Source: a virus (lineage: Duplodnaviria > Caudoviricetes). Taken from it: 41,741 nucleotides of DNA. The DNA lies in the IMG/VR virus record IMGVR_UViG_3300010413_000076, positions 1-41,741 of that record; one strand, 5' to 3'. The notes below the pieces were generated by a model. It saw nothing but the letters and a program-made list of their open reading frames with translations, made no database searches and had not been told where the DNA came from. The translations under genes and the position numbers were made by a program. Position 1 is the first letter of the stretch. Each line of letters begins with the position of its first letter. This document shows, piece by piece, positions 1 to 41,318 of the stretch.

Positions 1-124
1 GCCTCCTCTGCCTCCTCTGCCTCCTCTGCCTCCTCTGCCTCCTCTGCCTCCTCTGCCTCCTCTGCCTCCTCTGCCTCCTCTGCCTCCTCTGCCTCCTCTG
101 CCTCCTCTGCCTCCTCTGCCTCCT
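1..124. repeat. (GCCTCCTCT)n 9-bp tandem repeat, about 13 copies; encodes (EEA)n on the minus strand
   Basis: Read directly; the same unit occurs at the right end of the window. Confidence 0.98.
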
Positions 125-833
125 TCTCCTTCTTTAGTTCTTCTATCGCTTCAGCCAATAGCTTCTCGTGGTACGCTTTGGTCTCTATTTCGCACGCGAA
201 CATGGCGCGACATACGGCATGGCTTAAATGATCATTGCTGCGGTCACCTGCCAGCCACGCAAATAAATGAACAATGGCGCGGCCTACGTGAACGTCAGTG
301 GCCAGCTTGCGCCAACCTTCCCGCTCATGTCCTGTAGCGATGCCTTCCTTCATAACTCTCGATACTTCAAGGATCGTTAAAGGTGGAATAAGTTCAGCCA
401 TGTAGGGGCGCGTAGAGGCTAGACCATTCAATGCTGGGTCAAGCTCTCGGTTGGCCTCTAAGCCTATACACAAAGGAGGGAGTTTAGGCTTTGGGGCGTC
501 CTCGCCGCCTTCGTTGATGAGCTTTGCCAGAGTAGGACACTTGGCCATTACGTCTGCGTGCATCTTGGTCACAGGCTGGCCTACCTCATCATCGTGTTCG
601 GCTGCCTCGTGTTCTCTGGTCAGCAGTTCTGGCGCGTACGCGTTGGTTGCTTCGCCTGCTCTATCGGCCAGACCTTGTAGGCGTTTGAACTCGGCATCTG
701 CCCCTGTCGCGCCTTCCGTTATGTCCTCCGCTTCTCTCATCTTAAGCTTAGCCACAAATTCTTTGGCCGCGTCCATGTTTATCAGGCTGACTATTCCTTC
801 TTTTTCGGTGTTGCCGTCTAGGCTGCCACTCAT
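1..833 (-). CDS. dATP/dGTP diphosphohydrolase (DUF5664/PF18909-like) domain protein, 5' part; continues across the window junction
   Basis: Hand translation from ATG at 833, which overlaps the purZ stop (ATGA): MSGSLDGN...RPYMAELIPPLTILEVSRVMKEG...EGWRKL...HVGRAIVHLFAWLAGDRSNDHLSHAVCRAMFA...(EEA)n. The LIPP / WR / GDxSxDHLxHAxCR pattern is typical of this family. Absent from the ORF track because there is no stop before position 1. Confidence 0.8.
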   Translation of the reverse strand, partial: MSGSLDGNTEKEGIVSLINMDAAKEFVAKLKMREAEDITEGATGADAEFKRLQGLADRAGEATNAYAPELLTREHEAAEHDDEVGQPVTKMHADVMAKCPTLAKLINEGGEDAPKPKLPPLCIGLEANRELDPALNGLASTRPYMAELIPPLTILEVSRVMKEGIATGHEREGWRKLATDVHVGRAIVHLFAWLAGDRSNDHLSHAVCRAMFACEIETKAYHEKLLAEAIEELKKEKEAEEAEEAEEAEEAEEAEEAEEAEEAEEAEEAEEAEEAEE

Positions 834-1930
834 CGCGACACCTCAAGTTCTCCACGGTCGATCATATGTTCATGCTTTTTGCCGGTACCTATATACCTAA
901 CCGGAACGCCGTAGTTCTGCTCAATGTCGTGGACGAACCTGTGGGTCTTGGCGGTCAATAAGCTGTAATCGGTCTCTTCGTGGTTTGACCAGTCAATGTA
1001 GTTAGCGAACTGCAGGCACAACACAGTGGGGGCGCATACGCGCATAAAATGGTCAAATCTGTAACTAGACCACGTAAATACGCGGCGAGGCAGCTTCGTC
1101 GTCGTGGTGATTTCGGCAAAATCTTCCATTGGGCCTGTATACTCGCATTTCTTAGCCACTTGCGCCCACGATATTTCAGTTGCGCCGTAGTATGGACCAG
1201 AGGACCCAGTACGGTTATTTACACGAATCGGGTATGGGCGAAATACGCCATAAACGTCACCCACCCAAGACGGCGGCACTCCTGCCTCAGCCATAGCCAT
1301 GGCGGGATTAACCATCTTAGACGTACAGTATGTGGGGTGGATGCCGTGTTCGAGGTCTAGGTCAAATCCCTGCGTCATCTCACACAGGACGGTTAGCCCG
1401 TTCATTCGCATAGCGCTCAGCTCAACGGTCGTATCTACCAACATGAACCCCAAATTCTGCAAAAACCCTGCGCTTTCTTCGGCTAGCGCCACTTTGCCTG
1501 CGTGTCCTCTCATCATCTTGGTTACACGGGCAGCCCCTACACCCTGAAGCGTAGAACCTAGCCCTGATAGGCCAATGTCCATTTCAGTTGCTAAATGGTC
1601 CGACGTAATGAGTGACGCTCGTGGATGAATATGAATCCTGGACGGGTCGATGCCGAGTGCGTTGACCTCCTTGGCTAAGTTGTTTAGATTAATGACGGAC
1701 GCTGGTCCGAGTAACACAGGACACTCTGTTGTTATGCACGAGACCGGTAGGTGGTACGACACGTACTTTGCGTCACCGATCCACAACGTATGGCCTGCGT
1801 TAGGCGATGACGTCATGAATATCGCGTCTGGGTTAACGTCTCCGTTGGTTGCTACCCATGCCGCCAGTTTACCTTTAGCCTCAGACCCTGCCTGAGCACC
1901 AATGACGATGTTAAACTTACCTTTTTGCAT
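830..1930 (-). CDS. purZ: PurZ-family adenylosuccinate-synthase homologue (2-aminoadenine pathway)
   Basis: GAQAGSEAKGK (Ser in place of the PurA catalytic Asp of GDEGKG), SPNAGHT, GST, TQGFDL, YCT, RPYPIRV, SGP, TTTTKLPRR, LQFANY; 366 aa, shorter than bacterial PurA. Confidence 0.9.
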   Translation of the reverse strand: MQKGKFNIVIGAQAGSEAKGKLAAWVATNGDVNPDAIFMTSSPNAGHTLWIGDAKYVSYHLPVSCITTECPVLLGPASVINLNNLAKEVNALGIDPSRIHIHPRASLITSDHLATEMDIGLSGLGSTLQGVGAARVTKMMRGHAGKVALAEESAGFLQNLGFMLVDTTVELSAMRMNGLTVLCEMTQGFDLDLEHGIHPTYCTSKMVNPAMAMAEAGVPPSWVGDVYGVFRPYPIRVNNRTGSSGPYYGATEISWAQVAKKCEYTGPMEDFAEITTTTKLPRRVFTWSSYRFDHFMRVCAPTVLCLQFANYIDWSNHEETDYSLLTAKTHRFVHDIEQNYGVPVRYIGTGKKHEHMIDRGELEVSR

Positions 1931-1980
1931 TTCGTTTTCCTCCCAAGAGGTTAGAGTGTTAGCGTGCGCACGCCATACTT

Positions 1981-2154
1981 TTAGTTGTCGCCGAAGAAAC
2001 CCGATTCCCCGTCGTCCCAGTCATCACAGCCCCTGCTGTCTACGTGATCTACCGGGAGCGGCACAACAAGACCACCTCCACGCCACTGTTCTTGGTTATC
2101 TTGTGGTCCGTGGCATGCTGGAGGTGGTAATACTTCTTTCTTTTTGGGCGTCAT
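1981..2154 (-). CDS. Small hypothetical protein (57 aa, MTPKKKEV...GFFGDN)
   Basis: Hand translation; AGGAG upstream; fills the gap before purZ. Confidence 0.5.
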   Translation of the reverse strand: MTPKKKEVLPPPACHGPQDNQEQWRGGGLVVPLPVDHVDSRGCDDWDDGESGFFGDN

Positions 2155-2341
2155 CCGTTTTTCTCCTGTGCTTGAGTGTTAATACGTGTACGTACATTTA
2201 TATGTTAACCCTTGGGGCGTCTCCTACACAACCCGTCGTATGTTGCTTCGTGTAACGACCCCAACGGGTGGGTACTGTTTTTCGGTCATACACTATTTCG
2301 TGCAACAACTACCACCCGTCGTATATCTTTTCTCGGAACAA

Positions 2342-2647
2342 CTACCATCCGTGGGTGTTCTTTCTCGGTCCTACATTCTTTCCATTCAGTATGTCCTGCG
2401 ACATCTTCTTAGCCTTTAACGCCGTTTCGCGTCTAATAGTTACGTTCTTACACTTCTGGCAGCAGTAATTTTCCCAGTCGCCTTCGTCGTTCTTGCGTTT
2501 GAGCCAGCCAGCATCTCTGAAGTCCCTCGCTATGGCTTTAAATTCTTCCCTGGTTTCGCCCCCACGCTTAACATCAAATTTGTCACAGCTCAGGTTGTCA
2601 CACTCGATGGTAGTCTCGTCTAGTTTGTCGTCATATTCCATCGCCAT
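2342..2647 (-). CDS. Hypothetical protein with Cys pairs (CDNLSC, YCCQKC)
   Basis: ORF with AAGGAG RBS, co-oriented with neighbours. Confidence 0.7.
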   Translation of the reverse strand: MAMEYDDKLDETTIECDNLSCDKFDVKRGGETREEFKAIARDFRDAGWLKRKNDEGDWENYCCQKCKNVTIRRETALKAKKMSQDILNGKNVGPRKNTHGW

Positions 2648-2670
2648 AACCAGTCTCCTTTAGGTTTAAG

Positions 2671-5343
2671 TTACGCTTTCCACTTTTCCATGTTGGCCCA
2701 ACATCCATTGCCGTCTAAGTCAGACACCTTAACGTCTACCTTAAGCCCCATGTCTAACGGCTTACCGGCAAACACGTCTGCAGCTTCCATTATATCCACC
2801 ATCTCAGGCACAAAGTCATTCACAATGCTCTTGTGCACTCGCATTATTAAGTCATCATGTATTTGCATGACCGGATCACACGTAAAGTTTCTTTTGCGCC
2901 ATTTGCGGTATACTGGCACCATGCGCCCCATAGCCTCTTTCATGTAACCCTGTGCGCTTGACTGTATAGGTGCGTTGCCTGCTTCACGTTCAGCAGCTCT
3001 GCGCAACCACCTAGCCTTTGACTTGGCGTGAGGAACTGGCCTACGTCGGCCAAACATGTCCACTACAAAGCCACACCTTTTAGCCTCTGCGGCTACTCTA
3101 GACATAAACGCCCCGACCTCTGGGTACGTCTCGTACTTATAGTTGTATATTAATTCAGCACAACGTTCAAGCGGCCACTGACTTCTGGGTATCCCAGCCT
3201 CTATCATAGTACGCTGCAGTCCCTCAGGGCTGATGCCGAACACCACACCAAAGCCTGTGCGCTTGGCTGGGTACCGATGCAGCTTCTCTTGCACTTCTAC
3301 TAGCGGGATGTTGAACATGGTTGCTGCCGTTATGGCGTGCGGGTCGTCTCCTTCAATGAACGCACGTATCAGGCGCTCCACTCTAGCCGCGTGAGCTAAC
3401 ACTCTAAGTTCTACTTGGCTATAGTCTGCCGACACCAACACGCAATCTTTACCAGCAACGAAACACTCACGGATTCGTTTACTCTCCTTGGTGCGCGTAG
3501 GTTGTGCCATCAAATTTGGATCTGCCGTGGCTAGTCTTCCAGTCACTACCCTGGTTGTCTTAATTCTGGCGTGTACTCTACCGTCTGGCTTTACGTGCTC
3601 CAGTATAGAGTCAAGGAAGCTTGAAATCATCTTGTCTGCGTGACGCCACTCCTGTATTAGGCGTGCTGCTTCATTCTGCTCGGCTAATTCTTTGAGTATA
3701 CCTGACTTGGTAGACCTGCCGTCTATTTTGGGGAGTTTAAGCTGATCAAATAAGTATTCAGCGCACTGGAGGGCCGAATTAGGGTTGAACTTGCTATGTA
3801 CTCCGTGGTCTCGCTTAAGCTCATCTAACACCTCGTCCTTAATGTTGGTATAGAAGGCTCTAAGCTCCCTAAATTTAGCAGGCGGCGCTATTTCCCAACC
3901 TGAAAGCGACATGTCCACCACCATAGGCAGCATTCGCATATCTCGGTTGAATGCATCGCGTTGGCCAGTTTCGTCTATTTCGGCATTTAGTTGCTTCCAT
4001 ACTCTGTGCGTGACGTCGGGGTCTTTGCCTGCGTACTCGGTCACATCTGACTGCGGCTGAACGTCGCGCAGGTCTGCGCCCAGCATAGGACCAAGGACCT
4101 TTTCCACCATGGCGCGGCCATCTTCAGGCTCGACGCTCTTCCAACGCTTTCGTACGTCTGTGTCATCTGGCTTGGCTTCTGCATCATCTAGTATCTTCTT
4201 TATCCGCTTACGTATAGGCGTAATTTTCTTCATTCTGTAGCCTGCGGTTTCCTTGATGAGTCGTTCTTTGGGCTGCTGTGACCATTCAAGTTCAGCAACA
4301 TTGCACAGGTAATTAATATACTTGGCACGAGAAAATGGGCTGACTAGGTCCTCATAGTCTTGCATCTTCATGTTAAGCCGCCTAAATGCTAGGGTCTTCA
4401 ACGCCTGAGGTTCACCCAACAAGTACGCCATGGCCATCGTGTCATGAATCAACTTTGGGTATATTTCCAGCTTGGCCAGTACGTCGAGGTCATAGGGGGC
4501 GTTGTGGGCTATCACAAGTTGGTTTCTGCGGTGTAACGCCAACCTCAGCACGCCCACCATAAATACGTTGGTTGCATCAAGTATGTAGCCTATTCCTTCA
4601 GTCCACGTTATTTGGACTGTCCAGGGGTCACCCGCAGCAGTGGACTCAGTGTCAAGCGATATAGGCTCGTTTACGTTGTGGGCAGTTATAAGGTCTCTCA
4701 GTTCGTCAACTTTGTTTACCCACCGATATTTGCCCGTATTCGCCCACTCACCTACCACACGAGCATTTTTTACGTCGCCGGTATCCATCAACTCTCGAAC
4801 AATCGGCCTGAAGCCCTTCACATCCCTCAACCACATCTCAAAGAAATCGGCGTCCCTCATACCTGCAGCAGGGTGAACCATGGGGTATACTAACATGCCG
4901 TCCTTGCGCCGATACAAGATGCCGTGTATCTGTTCCACGCGATAATTTTTCATCTGAGGCAAAAAAGTTCTGATGGCAGCGCCGCCACACGCCACCATCA
5001 GCTTTAAGTTGCCCATTCTAGCCAGCGCCTTGTTAGTCCATGACCTGCAGTTGTTTAGTTCGTGCCATCTAGGAGCAGTGTCGTCCTCTGGCGGCTTGCA
5101 TCTAATGACGTTATCCACGCGTACGTGTGTTCCTCGCTCTAACCCTACGTGGTTTAACGCCGCGTCCACCTCGTCACCTGACGCCCCGATAAACGGACAA
5201 CCCTTTTCATCCTCCTTGGGGCCAGGAGCTTCACCGAACCACACTATTGGGGCGTCATACGACCCTTGACCAGGGACTACGCGACTACGCGACTTGCACA
5301 AACGGGAACAACGCCGACATTTACGGAGCTGGGCAGAAGACAT
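2671..5343 (-). CDS. polA: Family A DNA polymerase with N-terminal family-4 uracil-DNA glycosylase domain and 3'-5' exonuclease (candidate DpoZ)
   Basis: UDG: CxxCxxLC, GEAPG, PFIGASG, NVIRC, HPAA. Exonuclease: LDTES, HNAPYD, YAGKD. Polymerase: TGRLA..PNL, ADYSQVELRVLAH, RYPAKRTGFG, NAPIQS, QIHDD. Confidence 0.95.
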   Translation of the reverse strand: MSSAQLRKCRRCSRLCKSRSRVVPGQGSYDAPIVWFGEAPGPKEDEKGCPFIGASGDEVDAALNHVGLERGTHVRVDNVIRCKPPEDDTAPRWHELNNCRSWTNKALARMGNLKLMVACGGAAIRTFLPQMKNYRVEQIHGILYRRKDGMLVYPMVHPAAGMRDADFFEMWLRDVKGFRPIVRELMDTGDVKNARVVGEWANTGKYRWVNKVDELRDLITAHNVNEPISLDTESTAAGDPWTVQITWTEGIGYILDATNVFMVGVLRLALHRRNQLVIAHNAPYDLDVLAKLEIYPKLIHDTMAMAYLLGEPQALKTLAFRRLNMKMQDYEDLVSPFSRAKYINYLCNVAELEWSQQPKERLIKETAGYRMKKITPIRKRIKKILDDAEAKPDDTDVRKRWKSVEPEDGRAMVEKVLGPMLGADLRDVQPQSDVTEYAGKDPDVTHRVWKQLNAEIDETGQRDAFNRDMRMLPMVVDMSLSGWEIAPPAKFRELRAFYTNIKDEVLDELKRDHGVHSKFNPNSALQCAEYLFDQLKLPKIDGRSTKSGILKELAEQNEAARLIQEWRHADKMISSFLDSILEHVKPDGRVHARIKTTRVVTGRLATADPNLMAQPTRTKESKRIRECFVAGKDCVLVSADYSQVELRVLAHAARVERLIRAFIEGDDPHAITAATMFNIPLVEVQEKLHRYPAKRTGFGVVFGISPEGLQRTMIEAGIPRSQWPLERCAELIYNYKYETYPEVGAFMSRVAAEAKRCGFVVDMFGRRRPVPHAKSKARWLRRAAEREAGNAPIQSSAQGYMKEAMGRMVPVYRKWRKRNFTCDPVMQIHDDLIMRVHKSIVNDFVPEMVDIMEAADVFAGKPLDMGLKVDVKVSDLDGNGCWANMEKWKA

Positions 5344-5702
5344 TATAGAGGCCCTTTATCCGCCAAAGGGCCTTGGGGTGTAGGTACGTCAGGCGCGTGA
5401 CCCAAGTTACCTAACGTCTGCGGTAGGTGTGCTTTCACGTCAGGAGGTGGGGGTACGCTGTTACGTTCTGGATTTCCGTCTGATATTACAACTTTTTTGG
5501 CTCTGACTATGGTTTCTATCTTAAACAGGCCATCACGTAGCTGTTCCAGGTCGTCTGCATCTTCGGCTATTCTTTGCTTGAACCTAGCCTCAGCAGCGCA
5601 TACAGGACATTTGCCCATACAACGTTGTCGGTCAAACACCACAAGTGCGTTGTCGTGCAATTCACATATCAACTTCAAGTCGTTTACCGTCATGTCTATC
5701 AT
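5343..5702 (-). CDS. Hypothetical protein, CxxH...VVF...CPVC motif plus coiled coil
   Basis: Start moved to ATG 5702 after GAAGGAG; stop overlaps the polymerase start. Confidence 0.65.
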   Translation of the reverse strand: MIDMTVNDLKLICELHDNALVVFDRQRCMGKCPVCAAEARFKQRIAEDADDLEQLRDGLFKIETIVRAKKVVISDGNPERNSVPPPPDVKAHLPQTLGNLGHAPDVPTPQGPLADKGPL

Positions 5703-5704
5703 AT

Positions 5705-5971
5705 TTATTCTCCTTCCTTCGGTTCGAATTTGGCGCATGCCCTAGAAGTCGACATCAGTCCTATCTTGGCTTCATAACAGTACGACATGCCGTCCTTGAC
5801 GTTGGTAGGCGCAAATCTACATTCCATACATAGACGCGTGTTTATTGCTTCAGTTAGCTGCTGCCTCAGGTTGGCTAACTCGTCACACACTGGGCATTCT
5901 GCTTGTACCTCAGGCATGTGAGATCCGAACACTACTACAGCCCTGCTATGCTTCATACAGACTTGTACCAT
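5705..5971 (-). CDS. Hypothetical Cys-rich protein, CxxH...VVF...CPVC motif
   Basis: Start moved to ATG 5971 after GAGG; tightly packed with neighbours. Confidence 0.65.
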   Translation of the reverse strand: MVQVCMKHSRAVVVFGSHMPEVQAECPVCDELANLRQQLTEAINTRLCMECRFAPTNVKDGMSYCYEAKIGLMSTSRACAKFEPKEGE

Positions 5972-5985
5972 TTTTACCCTCTTTC

Positions 5986-6282
5986 CTAGTCTGCCAGCGT
6001 ACACGCTATCTTAACTGCCGCGTCTATGTCCGACTCCACACCTTCGCCGCCGTTAACTCCCCCAACAGACATATCAGTAGGCGTCTCCAGCGTTACGCTA
6101 TACTCGCCACGTCTAACGCTCAATACCAACACTGCATCCTCTGGTAAATACTTGACTGCGCGTTTAATTGCTTCGTCTATACTACTCGACGCCTTAGCCA
6201 TAACCTCTTTTCGTTCAAGCGACAGGTTAATCTCTCTGAGAGATCTGCCACCACTGTTGTCGTTGCTTCCGTTGTTCGTCAT
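5986..6282 (-). CDS. Hypothetical protein
   Basis: ATG 6282 overlaps the upstream stop (ATGA). Confidence 0.6.
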   Translation of the reverse strand: MTNNGSNDNSGGRSLREINLSLERKEVMAKASSSIDEAIKRAVKYLPEDAVLVLSVRRGEYSVTLETPTDMSVGGVNGGEGVESDIDAAVKIACTLAD

Positions 6283-6803
6283 GGCGTTTTCTTCCTTGTA
6301 AGTTTGCTGAGGTCTCCCGCACACACCTTTTCTAGGTCCCAATTGTGCTTACACCACCCCTCGACGTCAGCTAGCCATATCGGCATCCCTAGAGACTTTG
6401 CCAACGCTATTTCCCTGGTGGTACCTTCCGATCCTTGCCAACCACTCAACACTACGACGGACGCACACTTCTTGAGGAAGAAAAGAGACCCGCCCATATA
6501 TAGACTGTCTGGCGCTGCACCGTCCATATATCCTGAGTTCGCGTGAGGGCAAAACACCACGTAGCCCTGAGACCATAACCAACGCGCCAAACTTCGCGCT
6601 CTTTGTATGTTGGCATCTATTTCCGCTAGCGTGTCAGCCCTGTACGTACCAGCTACGTATACTGGTCCCACCAAGTCTTCTATGTTGCCCTTAGTCTCAC
6701 CCGCCACCGTGATGCATGACGCCACCATTTGCGGCTTTACTGCTTTAATAGCCGCGTTGTCTGGTACTCCCGTCACGCTGCCTACGTTGCTTTTGCTTGT
6801 CAT
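6279..6803 (-). CDS. DUF4406/DUF1937-like protein (nucleoside 2-deoxyribosyltransferase-like fold)
   Basis: VYVAGTY, VFCPH, CASVVVLSGWQGSEGTTREIALAKSLGMPI; start moved to ATG 6803. Confidence 0.75.
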   Translation of the reverse strand: MTSKSNVGSVTGVPDNAAIKAVKPQMVASCITVAGETKGNIEDLVGPVYVAGTYRADTLAEIDANIQRARSLARWLWSQGYVVFCPHANSGYMDGAAPDSLYMGGSLFFLKKCASVVVLSGWQGSEGTTREIALAKSLGMPIWLADVEGWCKHNWDLEKVCAGDLSKLTRKKTP

Positions 6804-6805
6804 GA

Positions 6806-7075
6806 TTACACCCTCTCCACTGCCGAGACGCTTGCGCCATCCTTGATTAATTTGAACACTCTGTCGTTGTACCACATGTACAGCTCTTCGCCATCCACCA
6901 TGTTTGCAGGGGCTAGCGCCGCTCCAAGCATCTTTTGTGACTGGTCTATTCTAGTTATTGCGGCAGTTAACAACGCTTGAGCGTCGTTTGCGCTAACTTC
7001 CACTGCCGTCTTGTCCGTTGCTGCTGCGTCGTACTCTGCCACTGCCGCATTCGCTATGTTTACGTCTATAGCCAC
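6806..7075 (-). CDS. Hypothetical protein
   Basis: GTG start with GAGGAG RBS; tightly packed. Confidence 0.6.
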   Translation of the reverse strand: MAIDVNIANAAVAEYDAAATDKTAVEVSANDAQALLTAAITRIDQSQKMLGAALAPANMVDGEELYMWYNDRVFKLIKDGASVSAVERV

Positions 7076-7089
7076 TTGTTTTTCTCCTC

Positions 7090-7845
7090 TCAGCCGTCAA
7101 GCTGCTTTATTAAGTCCTCTGCAGTCTTCTTGCCTATGCCGTCCACCGTCAACAGGTCCTCTACCGTCAATTCTAGCAGTCCTCTCGGCGTTTTAGCCAT
7201 CTTAGCTATGGCCTTGGCCTTGTCGCGCCCTACTCCTTTAAGTTCTGACGTCATTCTCACTACCAAGCTGGGCGCTTTAAGTTGTGCTTTGTCCACTCCT
7301 CGCTGCCACTTGAGGTGGCTTGAGTGCGTTTCCTTCTGCCACCACGCATGCAAGAACGTAATTATACTCGCCGTATGATTAGGGTCTCTAGCCTCATGGA
7401 CGTGTACGCCGCACATAACCGCTAGCGTGTTCAAGTACCCGTACAGCGCTGACCCTGTGAACGTCCGCTTACCTATGCGCAGTGGAACTATTTGCCCTCC
7501 TCCTTTCTTCATGCGCCATACCATGATCAACCCTGTATTAGGATCTACACGCCACTTACCTTCCACCACTAAGTGTATCTCGTGGTAGAGTTCTTGCATT
7601 TTGACCATCTGATGACCTGACAACCTGCCCGACCCCATAGAGTTAAGTAAATCACTTAACCGCTTCACTTCGACGCCTATCATAACAGACTTGCCGGACC
7701 CGTCAGGGTTCTTGCCTAGAAACGCCGCGTCTGCTGCTTCCAGCCTAGTAAGCGTGGCGCGGCCTTTAGGCAGCAGAGGCACTAGGTGCTTTGACCCCGT
7801 GCGGTCATCCACTAGAATTTTGGGCCATCCCTTAACTTTAGCCAT
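7090..7845 (-). CDS. ERCC4 (XPF/Mus81)-domain nuclease with C-terminal helix-hairpin-helix pair
   Basis: LVDDR, ADAAF, VEVKRLSDLLNS..SGRL..Q, LVVEG; KGVGRDKA and DGIGKKTA HhH motifs. Confidence 0.85.
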   Translation of the reverse strand: MAKVKGWPKILVDDRTGSKHLVPLLPKGRATLTRLEAADAAFLGKNPDGSGKSVMIGVEVKRLSDLLNSMGSGRLSGHQMVKMQELYHEIHLVVEGKWRVDPNTGLIMVWRMKKGGGQIVPLRIGKRTFTGSALYGYLNTLAVMCGVHVHEARDPNHTASIITFLHAWWQKETHSSHLKWQRGVDKAQLKAPSLVVRMTSELKGVGRDKAKAIAKMAKTPRGLLELTVEDLLTVDGIGKKTAEDLIKQLDG

Positions 7846-8027
7846 TAGAGTGAATCCACAACATCTGCCACTGCCTCACTGCAACTACCGCATAAATGCC
7901 TGTCCTCTTCGGCTAGCGCGGTGACGCCCGTGTTTATCCTGACGGTTACCCAGTCATCTGGCAGTACGTCTGCTTCTTTTTCGTTCTCAAGACTGCACAA
8001 GTCGCACTTGTATATGATTCGCTTCAT
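7845..8027 (-). CDS. Small zinc-finger-like protein (CDLC...HLCGSC)
   Basis: Start and stop overlap both neighbours. Confidence 0.65.
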   Translation of the reverse strand: MKRIIYKCDLCSLENEKEADVLPDDWVTVRINTGVTALAEEDRHLCGSCSEAVADVVDSL

Positions 8028-8788
8028 CCTACCAGCTCCTCTAGTAACACCCCCAAGTCGCAGTCTTCGCCCCAGTATTCGTCTCCTATCACGTCGCCGT
8101 TTATGCCGCAGTCTGTGATTTCGAAGCCGTAAAACACATCCTTGCCGCCGCCCTTGGCTGGCTTGCTATCTCTGTTTACTCGCACATTTACGTCGACGTC
8201 AAATACGGTACTTTTGTGTCCTACCGGTTCAAACCTGTTCGTCCTTGTGTCGCCTACCCATAACGGTCTAAGTTTGCGCGTCAAGATAAAGTTCTTGTCG
8301 GTCTCTCTTGCTGTGTGGATTAACATCCTGAATTCCGCGTTCACCGGCGCGTATCTGTATGTATGGTGTTCTTTCTTGCCGCTCTTCTTTACTTCCTCCA
8401 TCGGCTTCAGTCGCGCAAATTGTATCAGGTCCCACGAGTCAGACTCGGTATCCAGTATTACAGACTTGACGCCAGGACAGTCAAACGCGTCAAATATCGT
8501 ACCTTTCAGCTCATCCCATGCCTTAGCCGCTTCTTTCATGTTAGCAGGTTTTTCGATTACTTTCTCCAGTATACCAGACCGGTGGGCCTTATATCGACCG
8601 GCTAGCAGGTGTTCAATCCCTTTGTCCAAGTTCACAATTACAAGAGGCTTTGGCGCTGAAAGGCTTAAGTCGGTTTTTCCTCGCTTTTCCAGTCCCTCGA
8701 CCGCCACAATGATTCTTTCTTTTACTTTCGAGTCTTTCCCTGCCTTGAGCTTGTGTTTTGTCTTTAACTGCTCCATATTTACAACCAC
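8024..8788 (-). CDS. P-loop ATPase, Sak4/AAA_24-like
   Basis: Walker A GLEKRGKT, Walker B VILDT; adjacent to an SSB-like gene. Confidence 0.75.
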   Translation of the reverse strand: MVVNMEQLKTKHKLKAGKDSKVKERIIVAVEGLEKRGKTDLSLSAPKPLVIVNLDKGIEHLLAGRYKAHRSGILEKVIEKPANMKEAAKAWDELKGTIFDAFDCPGVKSVILDTESDSWDLIQFARLKPMEEVKKSGKKEHHTYRYAPVNAEFRMLIHTARETDKNFILTRKLRPLWVGDTRTNRFEPVGHKSTVFDVDVNVRVNRDSKPAKGGGKDVFYGFEITDCGINGDVIGDEYWGEDCDLGVLLEELVG

Positions 8789-8823
8789 CGCGTGTCTCCT
8801 TTAAGTCTCCTTGGTACCAAAGG

Positions 8824-8860
8824 AAAACGCCCGATCATCTGTTCGAATCACGGGCGTTTT
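8824..8860 (-). terminator. Intergenic hairpin, possible terminator or processing site
   Basis: AAAACGCCCG (8824-8833) / CGGGCGTTTT (8851-8860) inverted repeat. Confidence 0.5.
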
Positions 8861-8892
8861 AGTTTCCTTTACGTTGTTGGCGTTACTTCACG

Positions 8893-9732
8893 CTATACGG
8901 CGTATACGGTGTCGTCGCTTTCGTCGAATTCCCAGTCTTCGGCATGATCGGCACTGCCGAGCCAGTCAGCGTCCAGTATGATGTTCAAGACTGCCTGTTT
9001 GCCGCGTCCTGTTACGTTGCTGTACGCCCTGCTGCCGAGGTCTTCACGGTTGACGCCTTGCTCTTTGGCTTCGTCGCCCATTTCTTCGAGCGTGGCCAAG
9101 ATAGCTGCCTTGGCGCGGGATTCGTCATCGTCACCACCCTTGTCAGTTGCTTTTGACTTGCTGCTGGCCTTATCAGCAGGCTTAACCTTGCTGCTGGCCT
9201 TAGCCGTCTTGCTGCTGGACTTGCTGGTCTTGCTCGATCGGCTGCTGGCTTTGCTTCCACCCTTCCCAGGCATGTTGACGATTTGATCTACGATCGGCAC
9301 CGTACCTACTTTTCGCTTGTGGCCGTCTTCGTCTTCCAGATCCTCTCGGCCTTCGGGCTTTACCTGGATAAAGTGGTACTCGCCGCCTTCAAACACTGAA
9401 ATGTCTTCGTCCACGTCCTCTTCAGGGAAGCCTGAGTTAATCAAGGACGCCAGCAACATGCCAGCATTTGACTTTTCGTGCAGGCTTGTTTTGCTGCTCA
9501 GGGGCAACAACTCTCTGCCGTCTTCGCTTGGAGACCAGTCACCTTCTTTGCCACAACTCCAAGCCTGTACGCGTTCTTCGCCGTCTTCAGTTTCACCTCT
9601 GAACACGATGGCCGGTCTTTCCCCTGAATCGCCAAATGCGAACATTTCGAACCTGGATGAACTTACAGACATAACAACATCGTTGAGTATGCCGCCAGAT
9701 GATAAATTACTCGGTTTAATGCTTACACCCAT
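8893..9732 (-). CDS. Putative single-stranded DNA-binding or annealing protein
   Basis: Beta-rich acidic N-terminal domain, K/S-rich linker and acidic C-terminus; lies between helicase and ATPase. Function inferred from context. Confidence 0.45.
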   Translation of the reverse strand: MGVSIKPSNLSSGGILNDVVMSVSSSRFEMFAFGDSGERPAIVFRGETEDGEERVQAWSCGKEGDWSPSEDGRELLPLSSKTSLHEKSNAGMLLASLINSGFPEEDVDEDISVFEGGEYHFIQVKPEGREDLEDEDGHKRKVGTVPIVDQIVNMPGKGGSKASSRSSKTSKSSSKTAKASSKVKPADKASSKSKATDKGGDDDESRAKAAILATLEEMGDEAKEQGVNREDLGSRAYSNVTGRGKQAVLNIILDADWLGSADHAEDWEFDESDDTVYAV

Positions 9733-9789
9733 TTCAATTCTCCTTACGGCCTTTGCCGCACATACGTTGTTGATTCGTTTTGTTTGGCG

Positions 9790-9805
9790 TGTTTCACGTG
9801 AAACA
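9790..9805. promoter_or_regulatory. parS site (perfect consensus)
   Basis: TGTTTCACGTGAAACA, the canonical bacterial chromosomal ParB/Spo0J-binding palindrome; intergenic. Confidence 0.85.
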
Positions 9806-9828
9806 CTTAACTGATGTAACTACGTAAT

Positions 9829-11421
9829 TTACGCCGCGTGTCTTTCTCCTTCCTGTTGCGGGTCTAGTGGTTTAGGTACCGTCCTGAGCGTTTTTATAGC
9901 GTCTATGAAGTAGTTAGGCAGAAATCTAGCATAACGTCGAATGAACCACGTAATTGAGTCGTCTATTATAAACGTCTCGCACCAGTCACCCAATCCTCGT
10001 GGGCCTCTTCCTGCTGCTTGCACTAGCTTGAGCGACGTCAAATAACTCATGTATGCATCGTCGTCTTTAGCTCTGGCCTTAAGCAGCAAATCCTGTGAGG
10101 ATGGGTACGGCAATTTAGCGATTATCTGCCACCTACATTGATCATGCGGGAAGTCAAGGCCAGTAGATACTGACGGACTCACCAGTATTCTGGCCTCAGG
10201 TTTATCAGCGTAATGCTTGAACTCTTCCATGGCAAGCATCAGACCGGCGCTGTCGTCATGCGTCAACATCAGGTCCTTCAACCTAGATCTACTTATTATA
10301 TGCTTTGCTCGTGAGTATGACTGTGTGTGTATAATTCCGTTGCGACCAAGGTCTACTCTAGGCCCAGCTATCTGGTCTATTCTGGCGTGCCACTTATTAA
10401 GTTCTAGCGTGTCAGTCTTGAAGTTGAGTCTTACGGTGGGGATGTGGATTATCTGTCTGCGCCACTGTTCTATTCGTGGTTCTGTTCTGATGACGTTCCA
10501 GGGCTTTGGCGGTCCTGCTATCTCAAGGACCTTATCTGTCACGATGGCTGACGTAAGAAATCTTCCGCTAGTCGTCTGCCATAATGCTGCGTCGGCTAAC
10601 CACTGCGTGTCCTTGGCTCTGAGCAACGTTCCTTTCTTTTTGCGTTCTATGATTAACTCGCTATGGGATGCCGCCCCTGCTATGGCCTCAAGTCCATATT
10701 TCAACTCAGTCATAGCTATTCGGTCTCCATCCGTCATGATGCCCTTTTCCAGCCTTAACGCCACTGTATCGTAAGCATCGTCTAGCCAGTCCACTAACGC
10801 CCTTTGTCCTCCTGACGTAGGCGGCACCCCACACCATTTGTCGTGCGCATACACAGTTGCTGCACTGTCTACATGGTCCATCAGTTCGTGGGCCTCATCA
10901 CATATCAAGTAATCGAACTCGCCCAACGTCTTTTTCTTCCAGTGAGCCAACCACATAGCGTATGATGTAACCACCACTCGTGCCATGGAAGCGTCATATA
11001 ACTGTTGCCGATATGGACAGCCAAACTCCTTCCACATCTTCCGTTTGCCGCGCACTACGTTTTGACCCTCAGCGTATTTACACCTGTACCCAGTCCTACA
11101 TGGCCCTATGGCACATGACCGCTTTATTACTCTACACTCAAATGCTGCCCTACCCCTAACGTCCACAACTTTTCCACCAGACCCGAAATCCTTGTTTAGC
11201 TGGTCTTGTAGCCCTTTAGTACCAGTCAGTATGCACGTTCTACCTTTTTTGAGCAAAGCGCCGGCCACGTAGGCTAGAGATTTGCCGAACGCGGTTGGAC
11301 ACTGAGCCACTAGCGTTCCGTTGCCGTCGTCTTCCATGATGGCCTTAGCCACTTCGTCTTGTCTTGGCTGCCATGTCGTGAACTTGCTTCCAAGTCCTAG
11401 AGCGTTAGGGGTGGGCAACAT
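9829..11421 (-). CDS. DinG/XPD-family SF2 helicase with putative Fe-S cysteines
   Basis: Q motif (WQPRQ), CPTAFGKS, LQDQL, Cys cluster ending CPY, DEAH, GLDFP, KLPYP, QAAGRGPR. Confidence 0.9.
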   Translation of the reverse strand: MLPTPNALGLGSKFTTWQPRQDEVAKAIMEDDGNGTLVAQCPTAFGKSLAYVAGALLKKGRTCILTGTKGLQDQLNKDFGSGGKVVDVRGRAAFECRVIKRSCAIGPCRTGYRCKYAEGQNVVRGKRKMWKEFGCPYRQQLYDASMARVVVTSYAMWLAHWKKKTLGEFDYLICDEAHELMDHVDSAATVYAHDKWCGVPPTSGGQRALVDWLDDAYDTVALRLEKGIMTDGDRIAMTELKYGLEAIAGAASHSELIIERKKKGTLLRAKDTQWLADAALWQTTSGRFLTSAIVTDKVLEIAGPPKPWNVIRTEPRIEQWRRQIIHIPTVRLNFKTDTLELNKWHARIDQIAGPRVDLGRNGIIHTQSYSRAKHIISRSRLKDLMLTHDDSAGLMLAMEEFKHYADKPEARILVSPSVSTGLDFPHDQCRWQIIAKLPYPSSQDLLLKARAKDDDAYMSYLTSLKLVQAAGRGPRGLGDWCETFIIDDSITWFIRRYARFLPNYFIDAIKTLRTVPKPLDPQQEGERHAA

Positions 11422-11433: not shown

Positions 11434-13462
11434 CTAGTATGCCGGACAGCCGATGCAGTCGTATCGTTCGTCGCAGTCTTCAACGTCGTCGCAGGTTATA
11501 TGATGTTTCTTGGGGGCGTCTGCGCCGTCTGCGCCGTCTGCGGTTTCATCCTCAGGTTCGGGTTCAGGTTTTTTCTTTCTGGCCCACTGGGCAGCTTTCG
11601 CAATGCTCGGTGCTGCAGCCGTCCGCGTCTGGACAGTTTGCAGCACCATCACTGCCTTCAACCGGTCCTTCAACCGGTCCTTCCATCTGGTCGTCGACGA
11701 CTACGTCGCCAGTACCTGCTGCGTTAGTTGTAGGGCATTCAGGCGAATCATGGTACACTGACCGATCTGCGCCGCCAGCATCGCTACAAGCAGCACATTC
11801 TATTGTGTCTGGTTCTACTTCTGGTTCTACTTCCACTTCTACTCCCGCTTCGCCCTCGTCCGCGTCGGATCTTTTAGCCTTAGCCGCTTCTATCTCGGCC
11901 TCTTCTGTTGCCTTGTTGCGCACTATTATAGGACACTCCAAGCATAGAATGCCGCCACATTCCTTGACGTTTCCACAACCGAATTTCGGGTCTTTAGCCC
12001 CCTCAGCAATTGTAGTCGTCCTTCTCAGCACTGCTTCCTCGTGAGTCTCCTCCTTCGCGGCTTCGGTCTCCTCGTCGTCCGTGGCCCCATCTACGTGGTC
12101 ATCTACGTGACCCATAACTTTGCCTTCGTCGTTCGCGTCGTCCTCGCCGCCATCCTTGCTCGTCATATCTATTTTAGGCAGGGTTTCGTTGTTGTCGTCC
12201 GCTTCCGACGGCGTTGGCGCTTCGACTATTTCAAACTCAGAAGCTGTCGTGGGTTCTCCTGCCTTGTCTTCATCTATAATCATAGGACATTCAGCACATT
12301 TCACCCCTGTACAGCTTTCCACATCGATACACGCATATGGTGGCGTTGCCTCTGGTCTAAGCACTAGACCAAGTCTATCGGCTTTCGTCCGTGAGTCTTC
12401 CTCTTCTTCCTCTTCTTCCTCTTCTTCCTCTTCTTCCTCTGCCTCCTCCTCGTCTTCCTTGGTAGTCTCCTTTAATTCCACGGTGAAGGGTTCCTCCGTC
12501 AGGCCAGGGTCACCCCCTGCTACGTCTTCTGTTAAGTTTCCTTTGCTCTCGTCAGCAGAAACGGCGGGGTTGTCTACTACTACTGCTTCCCCCACAAGCT
12601 TTCCGTCTATTTCCACGTTCACTACCCTGCCGACGGCATGTCCTGTGAGCTTCTTGTCTTCCTTGTCGTCGTATTCCGTCACCCCTGCCGTCAACAACTT
12701 GCGCATTAGATCGGGTCCTGTAAGCAGAGGGATACCAAACATATGGCGCGGTTTGAATTCAGGCTCACGCCTTCCGGCAGGAGGGCCACCGAAGATCTCT
12801 TTAAATAGGTCTTCCAGATCCACGTTGCGCGCCATGCCCATGATTCTGTCATCCGTTTTAACCGCCCTTGCGTATTCTACTTCTACTCTTACGTCCTGAC
12901 CGTGAGTCATAACGGAATCTGCAGCAGCCGAAATGGTGCAACCCAAACACGCACCCACTGCGGCGTGCTCTATTTTGCTTGTACGCCTTGCGCCCGACGC
13001 CGCCCCTTTCCGGTCAACTATGGGCGTACATTCTTGACCATCAGGAAGGCTGAAGCACACGTCATACGTAGTGCCTTTGGCGTTGACGTCTTTGGACATT
13101 TTAACGCTCCAACCTTCCTGCGCCAGATGGAACATCTTGATTGCTGCCGTTATGTGACATTCGCTTATACCGGAAGGCCCCAGTACAAATCCTTCCGTTC
13201 TACTGTCCGGTCTGTGGTCATGGCGCGGTCGAGGATCATCGAACCTGCCGACTCTATTCATTTCTTGCATGGCGCTCATGTCGTCCAGGTCGTCTGTGCC
13301 TACAAAGTCACTTACACCCACGCCGAATACGCTGTTAGGTCCGCCAGATCTGTCGAACGCCTGATGCATGACTGCCATAGCGCTCAAAAGCCCCGCTATA
13401 TTAAGTCCGCGTCTTCCACCACTTCCGCTACTTCCACACCCGTTACCGTTCCCCGCGTTCAT
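11434..13462 (-). CDS. Large acidic protein with repeated 4-Cys modules; frame break near 11570
   Basis: 632-aa ORF 11564..13462 plus a +1-frame tail to 11434 carrying another copy of the Cys module; poly-Glu tract. Confidence 0.65.
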
Positions 13463-17867: not shown

Positions 17868-17896
17868 AGTCTAGCGTTACGTTTACACTGTGTCAA
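17868..17896 (-). promoter_or_regulatory. Fourth leftward promoter
   Basis: TTGACA-17 bp-TAGACT; imperfect palindrome TTGAC-acagt-GTAAA. Confidence 0.6.
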
Positions 17897-18063
17897 TGCT
17901 TAACAGCCTACAACCCCTAAACAGCCGAAAGCCTCCGTCGTACGGGCAACTTAAGACATCAGCATTCCGGGCACTCCATTCTGCGTCATCACCATACTCC
18001 TCTATATACCCCCCTACAACTACCATACCTTCCTGTATGCCCTCTGCTGTTCCACTCCCGCCC

Positions 18064-18093
18064 TTGACAGGGCGTCCATCGCAGCATTATACT
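18064..18093 (+). promoter_or_regulatory. Rightward sigma70-type promoter for the packaging/structural arm
   Basis: TTGACA-18 bp-TATACT upstream of terS. Confidence 0.65.
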
Positions 18094-18168
18094 GCTCACA
18101 TATGCCGAACGCACAGAAGACACTGGCAAGCCTTGACAGGGGAAGATTTAATAGCCGAGGAAGCTAAC

Positions 18169-18873
18169 ATGTCAACCACCAAACGCAAAAAGTCTACCAC
18201 CAAGCCTACCACCAAGATCAAAGTTAAATCAGTCACTAAACACAGACATGATTCTGCCACCACTACTACTGCTAACCCAACCAACGCAGAACTGGATGCC
18301 TTAGACTTAAGTTGTCTAACTGACCTACCCTGCACAACCTGCACGTCCAAAAAAGTGAAGCGGTTCATAGAGTTGTTAGCCACCACTAACAACGTAACTC
18401 ACGCCTGCAACCACTCACAGCTCCCTAAACGTACGGCGTATGCTTTACGCCAACGCTCCACGGCTTTTGCTGCCGCGTGGGACCAAGCCGTATCTTTCTC
18501 GTTGGATGACCTAGTTGGTGAGGTGTACGACCGTGCCAGGGACAGAGGCGACGACAAGTCGCACATGCTGCTTATGTTTGCCATCAATCGAGCAGACCGG
18601 CAGGCAGCCCAACGCGCCAACGACCAGACCGGCGCAATTAGCGACTTTGTGGCCGCTATGACTGCACTAAGGAAGGAAGTGGACGACGGCAGTCTAGTGC
18701 TGGACGACGGCCTTGACGGCGAAGAACTAAAGGAAACTAGCGAGTACGACGACGGGTACGATGGTGTAGACGACAACCAGGACGCCACAGGAAACCAAAA
18801 CGAGAGCGCCCCGGACGCCCCGGACGACCCCCCAGCGCCGCCAACCAAAAAGAGGAGCGCCGTTTATGGTTGA
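18169..18873 (+). CDS. terS: Terminase small subunit
   Basis: FIELLATTNNVTHAC...TAYALR..STAFAAAWDQA pattern; overlaps terL; start moved to ATG 18169 after GAGG. Confidence 0.8.
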   Translation: MSTTKRKKSTTKPTTKIKVKSVTKHRHDSATTTTANPTNAELDALDLSCLTDLPCTTCTSKKVKRFIELLATTNNVTHACNHSQLPKRTAYALRQRSTAFAAAWDQAVSFSLDDLVGEVYDRARDRGDDKSHMLLMFAINRADRQAAQRANDQTGAISDFVAAMTALRKEVDDGSLVLDDGLDGEELKETSEYDDGYDGVDDNQDATGNQNESAPDAPDDPPAPPTKKRSAVYG

Positions 18874-20149: not shown

Positions 20150-20164
20150 TAGGAGGAAAACATA

Positions 20165-20374: not shown

Positions 20375-20381
20375 TTAAATC

Positions 20382-21935: not shown

Positions 21936-21937
21936 AA

Positions 21938-22960: not shown

Positions 22961-23094
22961 AAGGTAGGGGTAAAACCTGAAACGCCAGCAACGCCGAAAC
23001 CTAAAGCAAAGACCCCCACCGCGTCTGTTAAAGGGAAGGCCAAGGAAACTTCAAAGAAGACTGCCAGGAAATTGAGCAAATAAAGGAGCGTACC

Positions 23095-24642: not shown

Positions 24643-24714
24643 CAGACACTAAACGGCGGCTTTTATGACTGACGATTAAGACGCTTTAAACACCTAAAAC
24701 AGGAGGAATAAGCT

Positions 24715-28483: not shown

Positions 28484-28485
28484 CT

Positions 28486-40505: not shown

Positions 40506-41318
40506 CTATATCGCGTTAAGTTTTATGTGGGCTTCTCTTGTTCTGTGTATGTCAGCAACGCAATGATCCACCACGGCGTCTACGTCACCCAGCTTTAGGC
40601 GTTCCCACACGTCAGCGCCTGTGATTGAGTCGTCGATTTCGATGCCTAGCTGTCTGCACATTTCGTCGAGGGTCTCACCTTTTTGAGGGTGGTAGCTGAA
40701 CCACCACGGGCGTAAGTCTATCACGGCGTCATCGTAACGTTTGCGTTGGTGGAAGTTGAAGCCGTGCGTATCAGCGCCCAGCACGATCGACCTCTTCCAC
40801 AGAAAGTTAAGATCGAACTCGCCTATGTTGAACCCTACCCAGTACGCGGGGTTGATGCCAGCCACGATGCTGAAAAAGTCTTCAAGCATGGCCTTTTCTC
40901 TTAAGGCGTCTTCCTTCAAACCGGCTGACGTAAATCCGTCAATAAGGACCTCACGGGATAACACAATGGGTTCCTCGTTGTCGAACGCAAAAGCTAGGAC
41001 GACTAAGCGCCCCAGACCACCACTGAGCGACGTTTTGAGGAGTTCCTTCTCTACTAAACTGGGCTTTACATTGGCGTACCAGTCAGCTATAGACTCAGGC
41101 TTCTTGTAACTCGAAGGTATGACGACCGACTCCTCTATTGCTTGGCGCGTTTTAGGGTCTAGCGTCGGCGCTGTTTCCGTGTCCAAGTAGCCGAATGTAG
41201 CCAACTTTTTAGCCTTGCCGCGTTCAGGCTCGTTAGCTAGATCTTCGCCGAATGATGACGGCAGCGGCGTTGGTTCGTGTATAATTTTTTCCTCTGGTTG
41301 TTTCTTTTTGCTCCCCAT
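40506..41318 (-). CDS. DnaQ/PolB-like 3'-5' exonuclease
   Basis: LDTET, VGFNIGEFD, IDL, HCVADI. Confidence 0.85.
   Translation of the reverse strand: MGSKKKQPEEKIIHEPTPLPSSFGEDLANEPERGKAKKLATFGYLDTETAPTLDPKTRQAIEESVVIPSSYKKPESIADWYANVKPSLVEKELLKTSLSGGLGRLVVLAFAFDNEEPIVLSREVLIDGFTSAGLKEDALREKAMLEDFFSIVAGINPAYWVGFNIGEFDLNFLWKRSIVLGADTHGFNFHQRKRYDDAVIDLRPWWFSYHPQKGETLDEMCRQLGIEIDDSITGADVWERLKLGDVDAVVDHCVADIHRTREAHIKLNAI

Follow-up and report, generated by a model that had tools for sequence, protein, structure and literature searches.

Two described phage systems for 2-aminoadenine (Z) resemble the locus analysed here. The phiVC8/SH-Ab 15497-like/S-2L system consists of PurZ-MazZ/DUF550(-DUF5664-2)-DatZ-DpoZ-2 (PMC8342488, PMC8599892), and the Wayne/Ghobes system, from an Arthrobacter and a Gordonia phage respectively, of PurZ0-DutZ-DmtZ(-DUF5664-1)-DpoZ-1 (PMC12884076). 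Z phages without DatZ are already known (PMC12884076; bioRxiv 2025.10.22.683976). A DUF5664 enzyme turning dATP and dGTP into dNMP and an NDT-fold dAMP hydrolase were characterised in such DatZ-less PurZ0 phages (PMC12884076); the DUF5664 enzyme of Wayne is slow (kcat 0.48/s on dATP) and favors dATP tenfold over dGTP. Furthermore, UDG-PolAs with an N-terminal UDG, its catalytic motifs and an exo-pol core are found in SPO1-like and SP15-like phages, where they are tied to thymine modification (PMC10201439; bioRxiv 2025.03.26.645540).

The record IMGVR_UViG_3300010413_000076 of an uncultured phage (Caudoviricetes) was analysed over its whole length of 41,741 nt, here termed the window; CheckV estimated a completeness of 70%. 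Searches with Pfam (31 ORFs) and PHROGs (52 ORFs) recovered all genes named in the initial annotation as one co-oriented run, all on the minus strand, as are the other features described below. A 307-aa ORF (39460-40383) and several small ORFs had no annotation after the DatZ searches. The window termini overlap by 107 nt, which is merely a 9-bp (EEA)n repeat. Because this repeat is confined to the two ends and EEA is read in the hydrolase frame on either side of the junction, the record is most simply read as a circular genome; segment 41547..41741, an open EEA frame with a stop at 41547, would then probably encode the C-terminus of the DUF5664 protein.

With the phiVC8/S-2L system the window shares the ATP-type dGMP pocket of PurZ, a PF18909 domain and Phe at polymerase position B4; however, its PurZ is just 30-31% identical and forms a separate clade, DatZ and DUF550 are absent, and the polymerase lineage differs. 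As in Wayne/Ghobes phages, DatZ and MazZ are missing, a stand-alone DUF5664 gene directly follows purZ (Wayne), an NDT-fold gene is present, at times fused to the dNTP hydrolase, and B4 is Phe. In contrast to that system, PurZ is of the ATP type (QFANY) and not PurZ0, the dUTPase-like DutZ is absent, the NDT-fold protein is without Asp12 and Asn77, and the polymerase is UDG-fused and unrelated. Phage vB_BpsS-140 has a PurZ-like enzyme with an NFANY pocket and, like the window lineage, no HD_3 match, but carries a DnaE-type polymerase (judged from ORF motifs), a dUTPase and an adenylate kinase. The window polymerase resembles SPO1-like and SP15-like UDG-PolAs in domains and motifs, whereas in its lineage the tie is to purZ and the O-helix Tyr has been lost.

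The PurZ-like enzyme and the coupled hydrolase

The core of the system is an ATP-type PurZ-like protein of 366 aa (830..1930), identified by PF00709, phrog_1211 (E 6.6e-58), pocket residues and trees. Eleven mapped side-chain residues of the S-2L dGMP pocket (S23, G130, S131, T132, R146, Y203, C204, T205, R240, V241, R280) are identical in this enzyme; S-2L Y21, which has a backbone role only, is Ala. S16, T275, V237, R282 and Q307-F308-N310-Y311 occupy S-2L pocket positions, and the dGMP pocket with its 2'-OH gate is kept (S-2L V241, T273 and R280 correspond to V237, T275 and R282). V237 is accompanied by the PurZ loop insertion. The ATP pocket is formed by Q307/F308/N310/G350, and the ATP-selective motif N-F-x-N/Q-Y reads QFANY, with Gln first; the F/Y12 position is Ala and the S-2L P336 position Lys. 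The catalytic Asp of PurA is replaced by Ser (S16), as in 118 of 120 homologues. Three plasmid-borne bacterial enzymes carry this Ser too; therefore, Ser16 by itself was rejected as proof of PurZ.

In a FastTree tree, the window enzyme belonged to a clade of 41 rows (support 0.994) nested in a group of 141 rows (support 0.905) that includes S-2L, phiVC8, Bhz9, Bm1 and BpsS-140, with PurZ0 falling outside; in a separate quick tree, the join of the window clade with canonical PurZ reached an SH-aLRT of 84. The best cultured match was Bacillus phage vB_BpsS-140 (33.8%). Neither the GTP-type, Asp-bearing S/T-F/M-x-D pocket of PurZ0 (Asn310 is present here) nor membership of the Ghobes/Wayne/Goodman clade was found. 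Profile searches, proposed earlier as a check, detected PF18909 and neither DatZ nor DUF550, but the PurZ model NF038379 scored 172.9, below its cut-off of 300 (phiVC8 397, Ghobes 346), a tie with the short-PurA model (172). Judged by residues and tree, the enzyme is a clade of its own within the ATP-type PurZ group, and it is predicted with high confidence to synthesize dSMP from dGMP and aspartate with ATP or dATP.

The adjoining gene (1..833; ORF 3-833) encodes a stand-alone PF18909/DUF5664 dATP/dGTP diphosphohydrolase domain at about residues 142-219 (E 2.7e-11; 43.7 bits, threshold 27 bits) and an acidic (EEA)n tail extending off the window end. Its ATG and the purZ stop share 4 nt, and the coupling of a DUF5664-like hydrolase to purZ, noted in the initial annotation, was thus borne out. 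The suggested comparison of related contigs gave the same picture: PF18909 occurs in 14 of 19 purZ-clade records, pairs with purZ in 10 of the 11 near-complete ones, and is present in 1 of 8 purZ-less relatives. The complete relative G003 is without PF18909, and the ORF after its purZ falls in no named family. L063, L054 and L047 carry fusions of PF18909 with an NDT domain, recalling the DmtZ-DutZ fusion, and in L084, L035, L038 and L085 PF18909 adjoins an NDT gene. G, W, H, H and A columns are common to the window and Wayne DUF5664 and invariant in 12 rows; the D-x-E-x-G segment seen in Wayne and in Bhz9 is missing, and a PDB sequence search with the protein returned no match. The predicted role of the enzyme is to provide dGMP and deplete dATP, replacing DatZ/MazZ.

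An HD-domain DatZ, reported absent before, was again not found: no HD domain appeared among the Pfam-scanned and PHROG-scanned window ORFs, no DatZ-type motif (HD regex) in six-frame ORFs of the window, no DatZ in two Atlas searches, and no HD_3 in any of 13 near-complete virus records, of which 11 belong to the purZ clade, the phiVC8 control being positive. PF04447 and the dUTPase family PF00692 matched neither the window nor any of 19 purZ-clade records, again with positive controls; PF04447 was the measure for DUF550, whereas MazZ-1 and MazZ-2, which have no dedicated model, lie outside the profile search of the relatives. The canonical purZ-mazZ-datZ cluster is thus not found in the window, DatZ and MazZ/DUF550 being absent.

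The UDG-fused polymerase and the replication module

A family A polymerase of 890 aa (2671..5343) combines a family-4 UDG with a 3'-5' exo domain and a pol domain, according to Pfam, a motif table and a tree. Position B4 of motif B (residue ~702, the E. coli Y766 site) is Phe, an O-helix change from Tyr that is absent from the initial annotation. Among 23 purZ-clade rows, B4 is Asn in 21, Phe in one and Tyr in one, whereas it is Tyr in all 11 purZ-less module relatives, three of them complete. The sole Tyr-bearing clade member (G010/L017, a 68%-complete record) is without DUF5664, NDT and HD genes and shows the strongest avoidance of A-containing palindromes (O/E 0.30, the other 15 lying at 0.66-0.87); the complete relative G012 is without the polymerase. 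Tyr-to-Phe at B4 is the sole change common to both DpoZ clades (PMC8599892), although both DpoZ papers consider it unlikely to decide A versus Z, and the polymerase of Spocter (PurZ0 group) retains Tyr.

In the polymerase tree the window lineage formed a separate 41-row clade (SH-aLRT 100). Assignment as DpoZ was rejected, since the NCBIfam DpoZ-1 and DpoZ-2 models scored 95.3 and 35.5 bits, below cut-offs of 500 and 350, and the protein lies outside the Wayne-like and phiVC8-like clades. It is a candidate for a Z-adapted, UDG-fused polymerase unrelated to either DpoZ. Whether replacement of the O-helix Tyr by Phe or Asn favors dZTP is, as a prediction from sequence, evenly balanced.

The UDG domain aligned to 1ui0 (E 1.3e-20) and scored 101.5 with TIGR00758 (cut-off 125.3). 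Fe-S cysteines, GEAPG, Asn and HPA, which we take to be the family-4 motifs, are intact, and no change specific to purZ-bearing members was seen by eye in the alignment. Although UDG is listed as dZ-associated (bioRxiv 2025.10.22.683976), the domain probably does ordinary uracil repair.

The run also holds genes for an ERCC4-HhH nuclease (7090..7845; Pfam; tblastn match in 7 of 8 purZ-less relatives), a Sak4-like AAA ATPase (8024..8788; AAA_24; Pfam, PHROG; 6 of 8), a conserved protein (8893..9732) and a DinG/YoaA-like helicase (9829..11421; Pfam, PHROG; 7 of 8). The conserved protein, present in 30 of 38 loci and matched in 6 of 8 purZ-less relatives, found only unnamed viral clusters in an Atlas search; by position and acidic tail it is probably a single-strand binding protein. 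These four genes are the general replication/recombination module of the phage. For a PolB-type 3'-5' exonuclease (40506..41318; PF10108), a search of the fetched portions of 23 related genomes gave no match. The initial annotation had counted ERCC4, Sak4, DinG, the exonuclease and UDG among the Z-system members; this was not sustained, since the module occurs without purZ and the exonuclease is not conserved. No primase was named among the long ORFs scanned, non-exhaustively, from the complete relatives G004, G005 and G012; its lack as a sign of a lost piece was therefore rejected.

NDT-fold and HD-fold genes and palindrome counts

An NDT-fold protein (6279..6875; DUF4406/DUF7768/phrog_355; 174 aa in the database gene call) is a candidate dAMP N-glycosidase and an optional part. 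Its structure model (pLDDT 89.6) matches MilB, NDTs and DNPH1. In a distant alignment (21% identity), DmtZ Tyr6, Pro57 and Glu103 are kept, whereas Asp12 is Arg and Asn77 is Ser. D12R inactivates DmtZ, and identity with DmtZ was rejected for the missing Asp12 and Asn77. A word-index search of low sensitivity with the NDT domain returned the self-match only. Of 19 purZ-clade records, 12 lack NDT, whereas 2 of 8 purZ-less relatives have it.

In these 19 records, NDT occurs in seven, an HD-fold gene in eight, both in none and neither in four (Fisher p 0.013, kinship uncorrected). The previously unannotated HD-fold family is named here as a candidate dAMP phosphatase. Its best VIA Z was 7.4, under 8, with nearly all top rows being HD/PDEase proteins, and PDB profiles matched weakly (E 0.18-0.47). 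The family is frequent in purZ-less phages (PurZ profile 0 of 19 on records G060-G078); the whole-record purZ search covered 50 loci, with 30 more HD-family loci left out.

Palindromes served as a proxy for base modification. GC-only 6-bp palindromes were observed four times in the window versus 50 expected, those with two A/T 215 times versus 279; these counts are compatible with protection of A-containing sites. The pattern set the purZ clade apart from 36 further phage loci (p 5e-6), but not from the 8 purZ-less relatives (p 0.14; 0.07 post hoc minus G010), and was weaker in known Z phages than in the purZ clade. A methyltransferase regex, run without positive control, matched none of 24 genomes.

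Proposed pathway and alternatives

Because PurZ active-site residues, an adjoining nucleotide hydrolase and a rare polymerase active-site change occur together, the phage likely builds its DNA with Z replacing adenine, and we infer that virion DNA would contain Z. We consider it rather probable that the PurZ-type enzyme makes Z nucleotides before replication, that DUF5664 stands in for DatZ/MazZ and that the UDG-polymerase copies Z-rich DNA. DUF5664 would convert dGTP to dGMP and dATP to dAMP, as shown for the Wayne homologue, and PurZ, judged from its pocket, would very probably couple aspartate to dGMP with ATP or dATP. Host PurB and kinases, established in this role in other Z phages, would complete dZTP; the window itself showed no lyase. 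Somewhat doubtfully, the NDT-fold protein would release adenine from dAMP and keep host kinases from remaking dATP, with the HD-fold protein as its counterpart in relatives. Finally, the polymerase with Phe/Asn at the O-helix Tyr may prefer dZTP, an even chance in our estimate. The initial proposal of Z made by a different enzyme set held in part: the pathway is probably DatZ-less with another pool toolkit, but DUF5664 and NDT-fold enzymes are already published Z parts.

DNA of mixed A/Z composition, with dZTP made, adenine weakly excluded, NDT/HD genes as cargo and an unselective polymerase, is unlikely but deserves consideration. DatZ, DUF550 and DutZ are all absent, both the NDT and HD families are also found without purZ, and partial Z-clusters lowered substitution in E. 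coli (PMC8342488). Moreover, the clade still mildly avoids A-containing palindromes (median O/E ~0.72), more than six known Z-phage stretches (p 0.006). The tenfold dATP preference of Wayne DUF5664 and the consumption of dATP by S-2L PurZ itself argue against weak exclusion, and additional adaptation is suggested by the PF18909-NDT fusions together with the residues found at B4. It is less probable still that the PurZ-like enzyme works on IMP as an auxiliary adenylosuccinate synthetase, or uses another substrate, in a phage with canonical DNA: its score under the curated cut-off, tied with short-PurA, and its Ser-bearing plasmid relatives would fit, whereas the loss of the PurA Asp, T275, V237 with its loop insertion, the F/N/Y ATP pocket, the nesting among characterised PurZ enzymes and the tight linkage with a dGTP hydrolase family speak against it.

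The initial annotation had also considered base editing or repair after replication. Removal of adenine by UDG-PolA, NDT, ERCC4, Sak4 and exonuclease appears highly improbable, because the same module, with intact family-4 UDG motifs, exists in relatives devoid of purZ, three complete ones among them. Catalytic UDG motifs are intact here as well, UDG domains co-occur with dZ contigs, and dU excision and abasic-site bypass are known from other UDG-PolAs (bioRxiv 2025.03.26.645540); however, no purZ-specific change was seen by eye in the UDG alignment, the substrates of NDT-fold enzymes are free nucleosides or nucleotides, and the exonuclease is not conserved.

The combination of an ATP-type PurZ, a lone DUF5664, an NDT-or-HD gene and a UDG-PolA without the O-helix Tyr is new and was not found in the literature searched. 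More tentatively, and with considerable doubt, the lineage may possess its own Z toolkit, in which lone DUF5664 replaces DatZ/MazZ beside ATP-type PurZ, NDT and HD proteins are swappable dAMP sinks, and a Z-selective UDG-polymerase of third origin lost the O-helix Tyr repeatedly. The clade does not reach the curated cut-offs for PurZ and DpoZ and would therefore be overlooked by model-based surveys. If the Z-DNA reading is true, purZ and DUF5664 would be a two-gene route useful in engineering. For the question of how DpoZ polymerases prefer Z over A (PMC8599892), this lineage offers a set of related polymerases, some from purZ-bearing and some from purZ-less phages, whose difference lies at the one residue changed in both DpoZ groups, so the choice between Z and A could be tested with few enzymes and point mutants. 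If the third-origin reading is true, the purZ-less, Tyr-bearing sisters would be a natural paired set for Z-versus-A discrimination.

Contig layout and the PurZ-like enzyme

The window, a 41.7-kb contig of a tailed phage, has its replication genes on the minus strand and the genes from terminase through to tail on the plus strand; every gene named in the initial annotation was found in its place. Its terminal overlap consists of a 9-bp repeat alone, coding EEA. As this repeat is absent elsewhere in the window and its reading frame runs on to a stop at 41547, the sequence suggests a genome that is likely circular; CheckV completeness was 70%. An ORF of 632 aa (11564-13462), acidic, of low complexity and with recurring Cys-rich motifs, gave no match in the family search, and an endolysin, a cell-wall hydrolase (Hydrolase_2; 38158-38817), is located on the early-gene strand. 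Neither the window nor the scanned long ORFs of three complete relatives contained a recognisable primase.

The PurZ-like protein (830-1930, minus strand) was compared with solved structures; phiVC8 PurZ and S-2L PurZ ranked top, narrowly above a Pyrococcus-type PurA. Residues were mapped onto the S-2L numbering of PMC8342488. The protein retains the residues of the dGMP pocket, the Val of the 2'-OH gate, and Phe, Asn and Gly of the ATP pocket; departures are Y21 to Ala, N305 to Gln and P336 to Lys. The closest cultured match is Bacillus phage vB_BpsS-140 (33.8%), metagenomic homologues show 44-66% identity (best 119 among the matches listed), and 12 of the 50%-level representatives score at least 400 bits, after which scores fall to 339. 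A quick tree of 57 rows set the PurZ-like clade apart (SH-aLRT 99). Furthermore, a FastTree of 197 rows (141 of 147 new representatives retained, one degenerate row removed) placed a clade of 41 rows within the ATP-type group, to which S-2L and phiVC8 also belong, with PurZ0 outside. The protein scores 172.9 with the NCBIfam PurZ model, which requires 300, and the Ser at the PurA catalytic Asp position is also present in three plasmid enzymes; identification as PurZ therefore depends on the pocket as a whole, on the tree and on the neighbouring genes. Very probably, the enzyme acts on dGMP.

The three plasmids, from Sinorhizobium, Burkholderia and Agrobacterium (L274, L275, L276), encode short PurA-like enzymes in which Ser takes the place of the catalytic Asp and the pocket is of GTP type. 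Intein or Hint insertions were observed within the PurZ genes L033:10001-11557, P0085 and P0117.

The purZ neighbourhood and the absence of DatZ

The purZ stop and the start of DUF5664 (PF18909; 1-833, minus strand) share four bases. A PurZ-profile search yielded 99 loci, 63 after rough de-duplication, of which 38 span at least 7 kb; a PF18909-family gene is present in 30 of these 38, nearly always directly after purZ. On whole records it was found in 14 of the 19 from the clade, in 10 of the 11 relatives that are near-complete and in one of eight purZ-less relatives. HD_3 (the test for DatZ), PF04447 (DUF550) and dUTPase gave zero matches in whole clade records; phiVC8, Bhz9 and Ghobes served as positive controls. 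The profile searches and synteny comparison proposed initially have returned neither DatZ nor DUF550 and have identified PF18909 as a frequent purZ neighbour. The remark that an HD-domain DatZ is missing holds for window and lineage: because whole records of relatives also lack HD_3, its absence is a lineage property and not a contig artefact.

Three relatives deserve mention. In the complete 44-kb record G012, purZ and PF18909 are present, and the searches for the polymerase, NDT and HD genes found nothing; a polymerase of the host may serve this phage. G003, the sole complete relative without PF18909, encodes directly after purZ a 108-aa helical protein (L007:11055-11381, phrog_6802) presumably resembling Nmad1/DUF1599, a likeness without Pfam confirmation. 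The clade contig G027 (L102) was binned in a Dehalococcoidia MAG holding three partial matches to the window polymerase, which is either a host hint or a binning artefact.

By itself, DUF5664 would leave dAMP, rechargeable by host kinases. An NDT-fold gene (6279-6875 in the window, minus strand) occurs in seven of 19 clade records; three loci have it as a fusion with DUF5664, and in four more the two are adjacent. In eight of the 19, a gene of HD-type fold with an invariant H-HD-H-H-D set and no Pfam or PHROG match lies beside the polymerase or DUF5664. The two genes never occur in one record, and four records lack both (Fisher p 0.013, uncorrected for kinship). The structure model of the window NDT protein matches MilB, NDTs and DNPH1; compared with DmtZ, Tyr, Pro and Glu are retained, while Asp12 is replaced by Arg and Asn77 by Ser. 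Since both families also occur without purZ, their filling of a dAMP-sink slot is a lead only. The HD-fold phage family (L042:2659-3189, alignment A3; same invariant set) comprises 96 related viral stretches, most of which have no purZ.

The UDG-fused polymerase and the replication block

The window polymerase (2671-5343, minus strand), a family-4 UDG-exo-PolA, has its UDG motifs intact; it scores far below both DpoZ models and falls in a separate 41-row clade. Its motif-B O-helix position B4 (E. coli Y766 site) is Phe. PMC8599892 and PMC10201439 describe Phe at B4 as the only change common to both DpoZ groups, and both doubt that it decides between A and Z. Among 23 purZ-clade rows B4 is Asn in 21, Phe in the window and Tyr in L017; Tyr occupies B4 in each of the 11 relatives that share the module and in which no purZ was found, three of these relatives being complete. 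In further phages that have a PurZ-like gene, B4 is Phe (L120, L040, L092) or Thr (L162); Tyr is found in Spocter and in L116, which has a degenerate PurA-fold gene. In a polymerase tree with a weakly resolved backbone the window enzyme lies on a long branch away from the Asn groups, which hints that Tyr was lost separately in each. In Taq, according to bioRxiv 2025.03.26.645540 and PMC7155079, the B4-site Tyr helps dATP insertion opposite abasic sites, so the role of the B4 change might lie in bypassing lesions or in processivity on Z:T-rich DNA, and not in selection.

G010 (L017) has kept purZ with B4 Tyr; DUF5664, NDT and HD were not found in this 68%-complete record. Its 21-kb locus has zero GATC sites and avoids A-containing palindromes most strongly; possibly, it is reverting to A-DNA. 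A relative with a Tyr polymerase has in the purZ slot a degenerate PurA-fold gene (L265, G040:3033-3965) with His at the Ser site and the pocket lost.

The helicase (9829-11421), SSB-like gene (8893-9732), Sak4 (8024-8788), ERCC4 (7090-7845) and UDG-PolA, all on the minus strand, form a recurrent block, matched in 7, 6, 6, 7 and 8 of the eight purZ-less relatives, respectively, and the position of purZ shifts around it. The PolB-type exonuclease (40506-41318, minus strand) was unmatched in the first 30-60 kb of each of 23 genomes. The suggestion that UDG-PolA, ERCC4, Sak4, helicase and exonuclease carry out post-replicative editing is not supported; no evidence links any of them, or the SSB-like gene, to Z.

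Virion genes at 17890-36313 (portal phrog_146, major tail protein, tape measure) had no tblastn match in 23 relatives sharing the replication and Z module. The head set of relatives checked (portal phrog_156, capsid phrog_283, head closure Hc3) is unlike that of the window. It appears that the module was transferred to a long-tailed virion of unrelated type.

Relation to known Z systems and probable Z content

DUF5664 of Wayne converts dATP, dUTP and dGTP to monophosphates, and the NDT-fold DmtZ hydrolyses dAMP and is able to pass its sugar-phosphate to Z; PurZ0 phages use both in place of DatZ/MazZ, whereas DatZ is "mostly" present in phages with PurZ (PMC12884076), most of these phages having it. 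bioRxiv 2025.10.22.683976 associates NDT and UDG domains with dZ-enriched contigs. With these two sources each part of the window system is already known; of the non-canonical toolkit first proposed, the DatZ-less purZ pathway remains probable, and the parts (DUF5664, NDT fold, UDG association) are not new. The literature search returned no account of an ATP-type PurZ with a lone DUF5664 and without DatZ, nor of a UDG-fused Z-phage polymerase, in sources whose figures and supplementary tables may contain clade members. The window system works like the DatZ-less system of Wayne/Ghobes, but is not a member of it.

Restriction-palindrome counts agree with Z-DNA, yet do not tell purZ-positive from purZ-less relatives; dZ blocks only 53% of enzymes, according to PMC12944874. 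The chance that Z substitution is near complete appears about even, and it is fairly likely that virion DNA contains much Z. Judged from its genes, this phage probably encodes a real, functional Z-nucleotide pathway.
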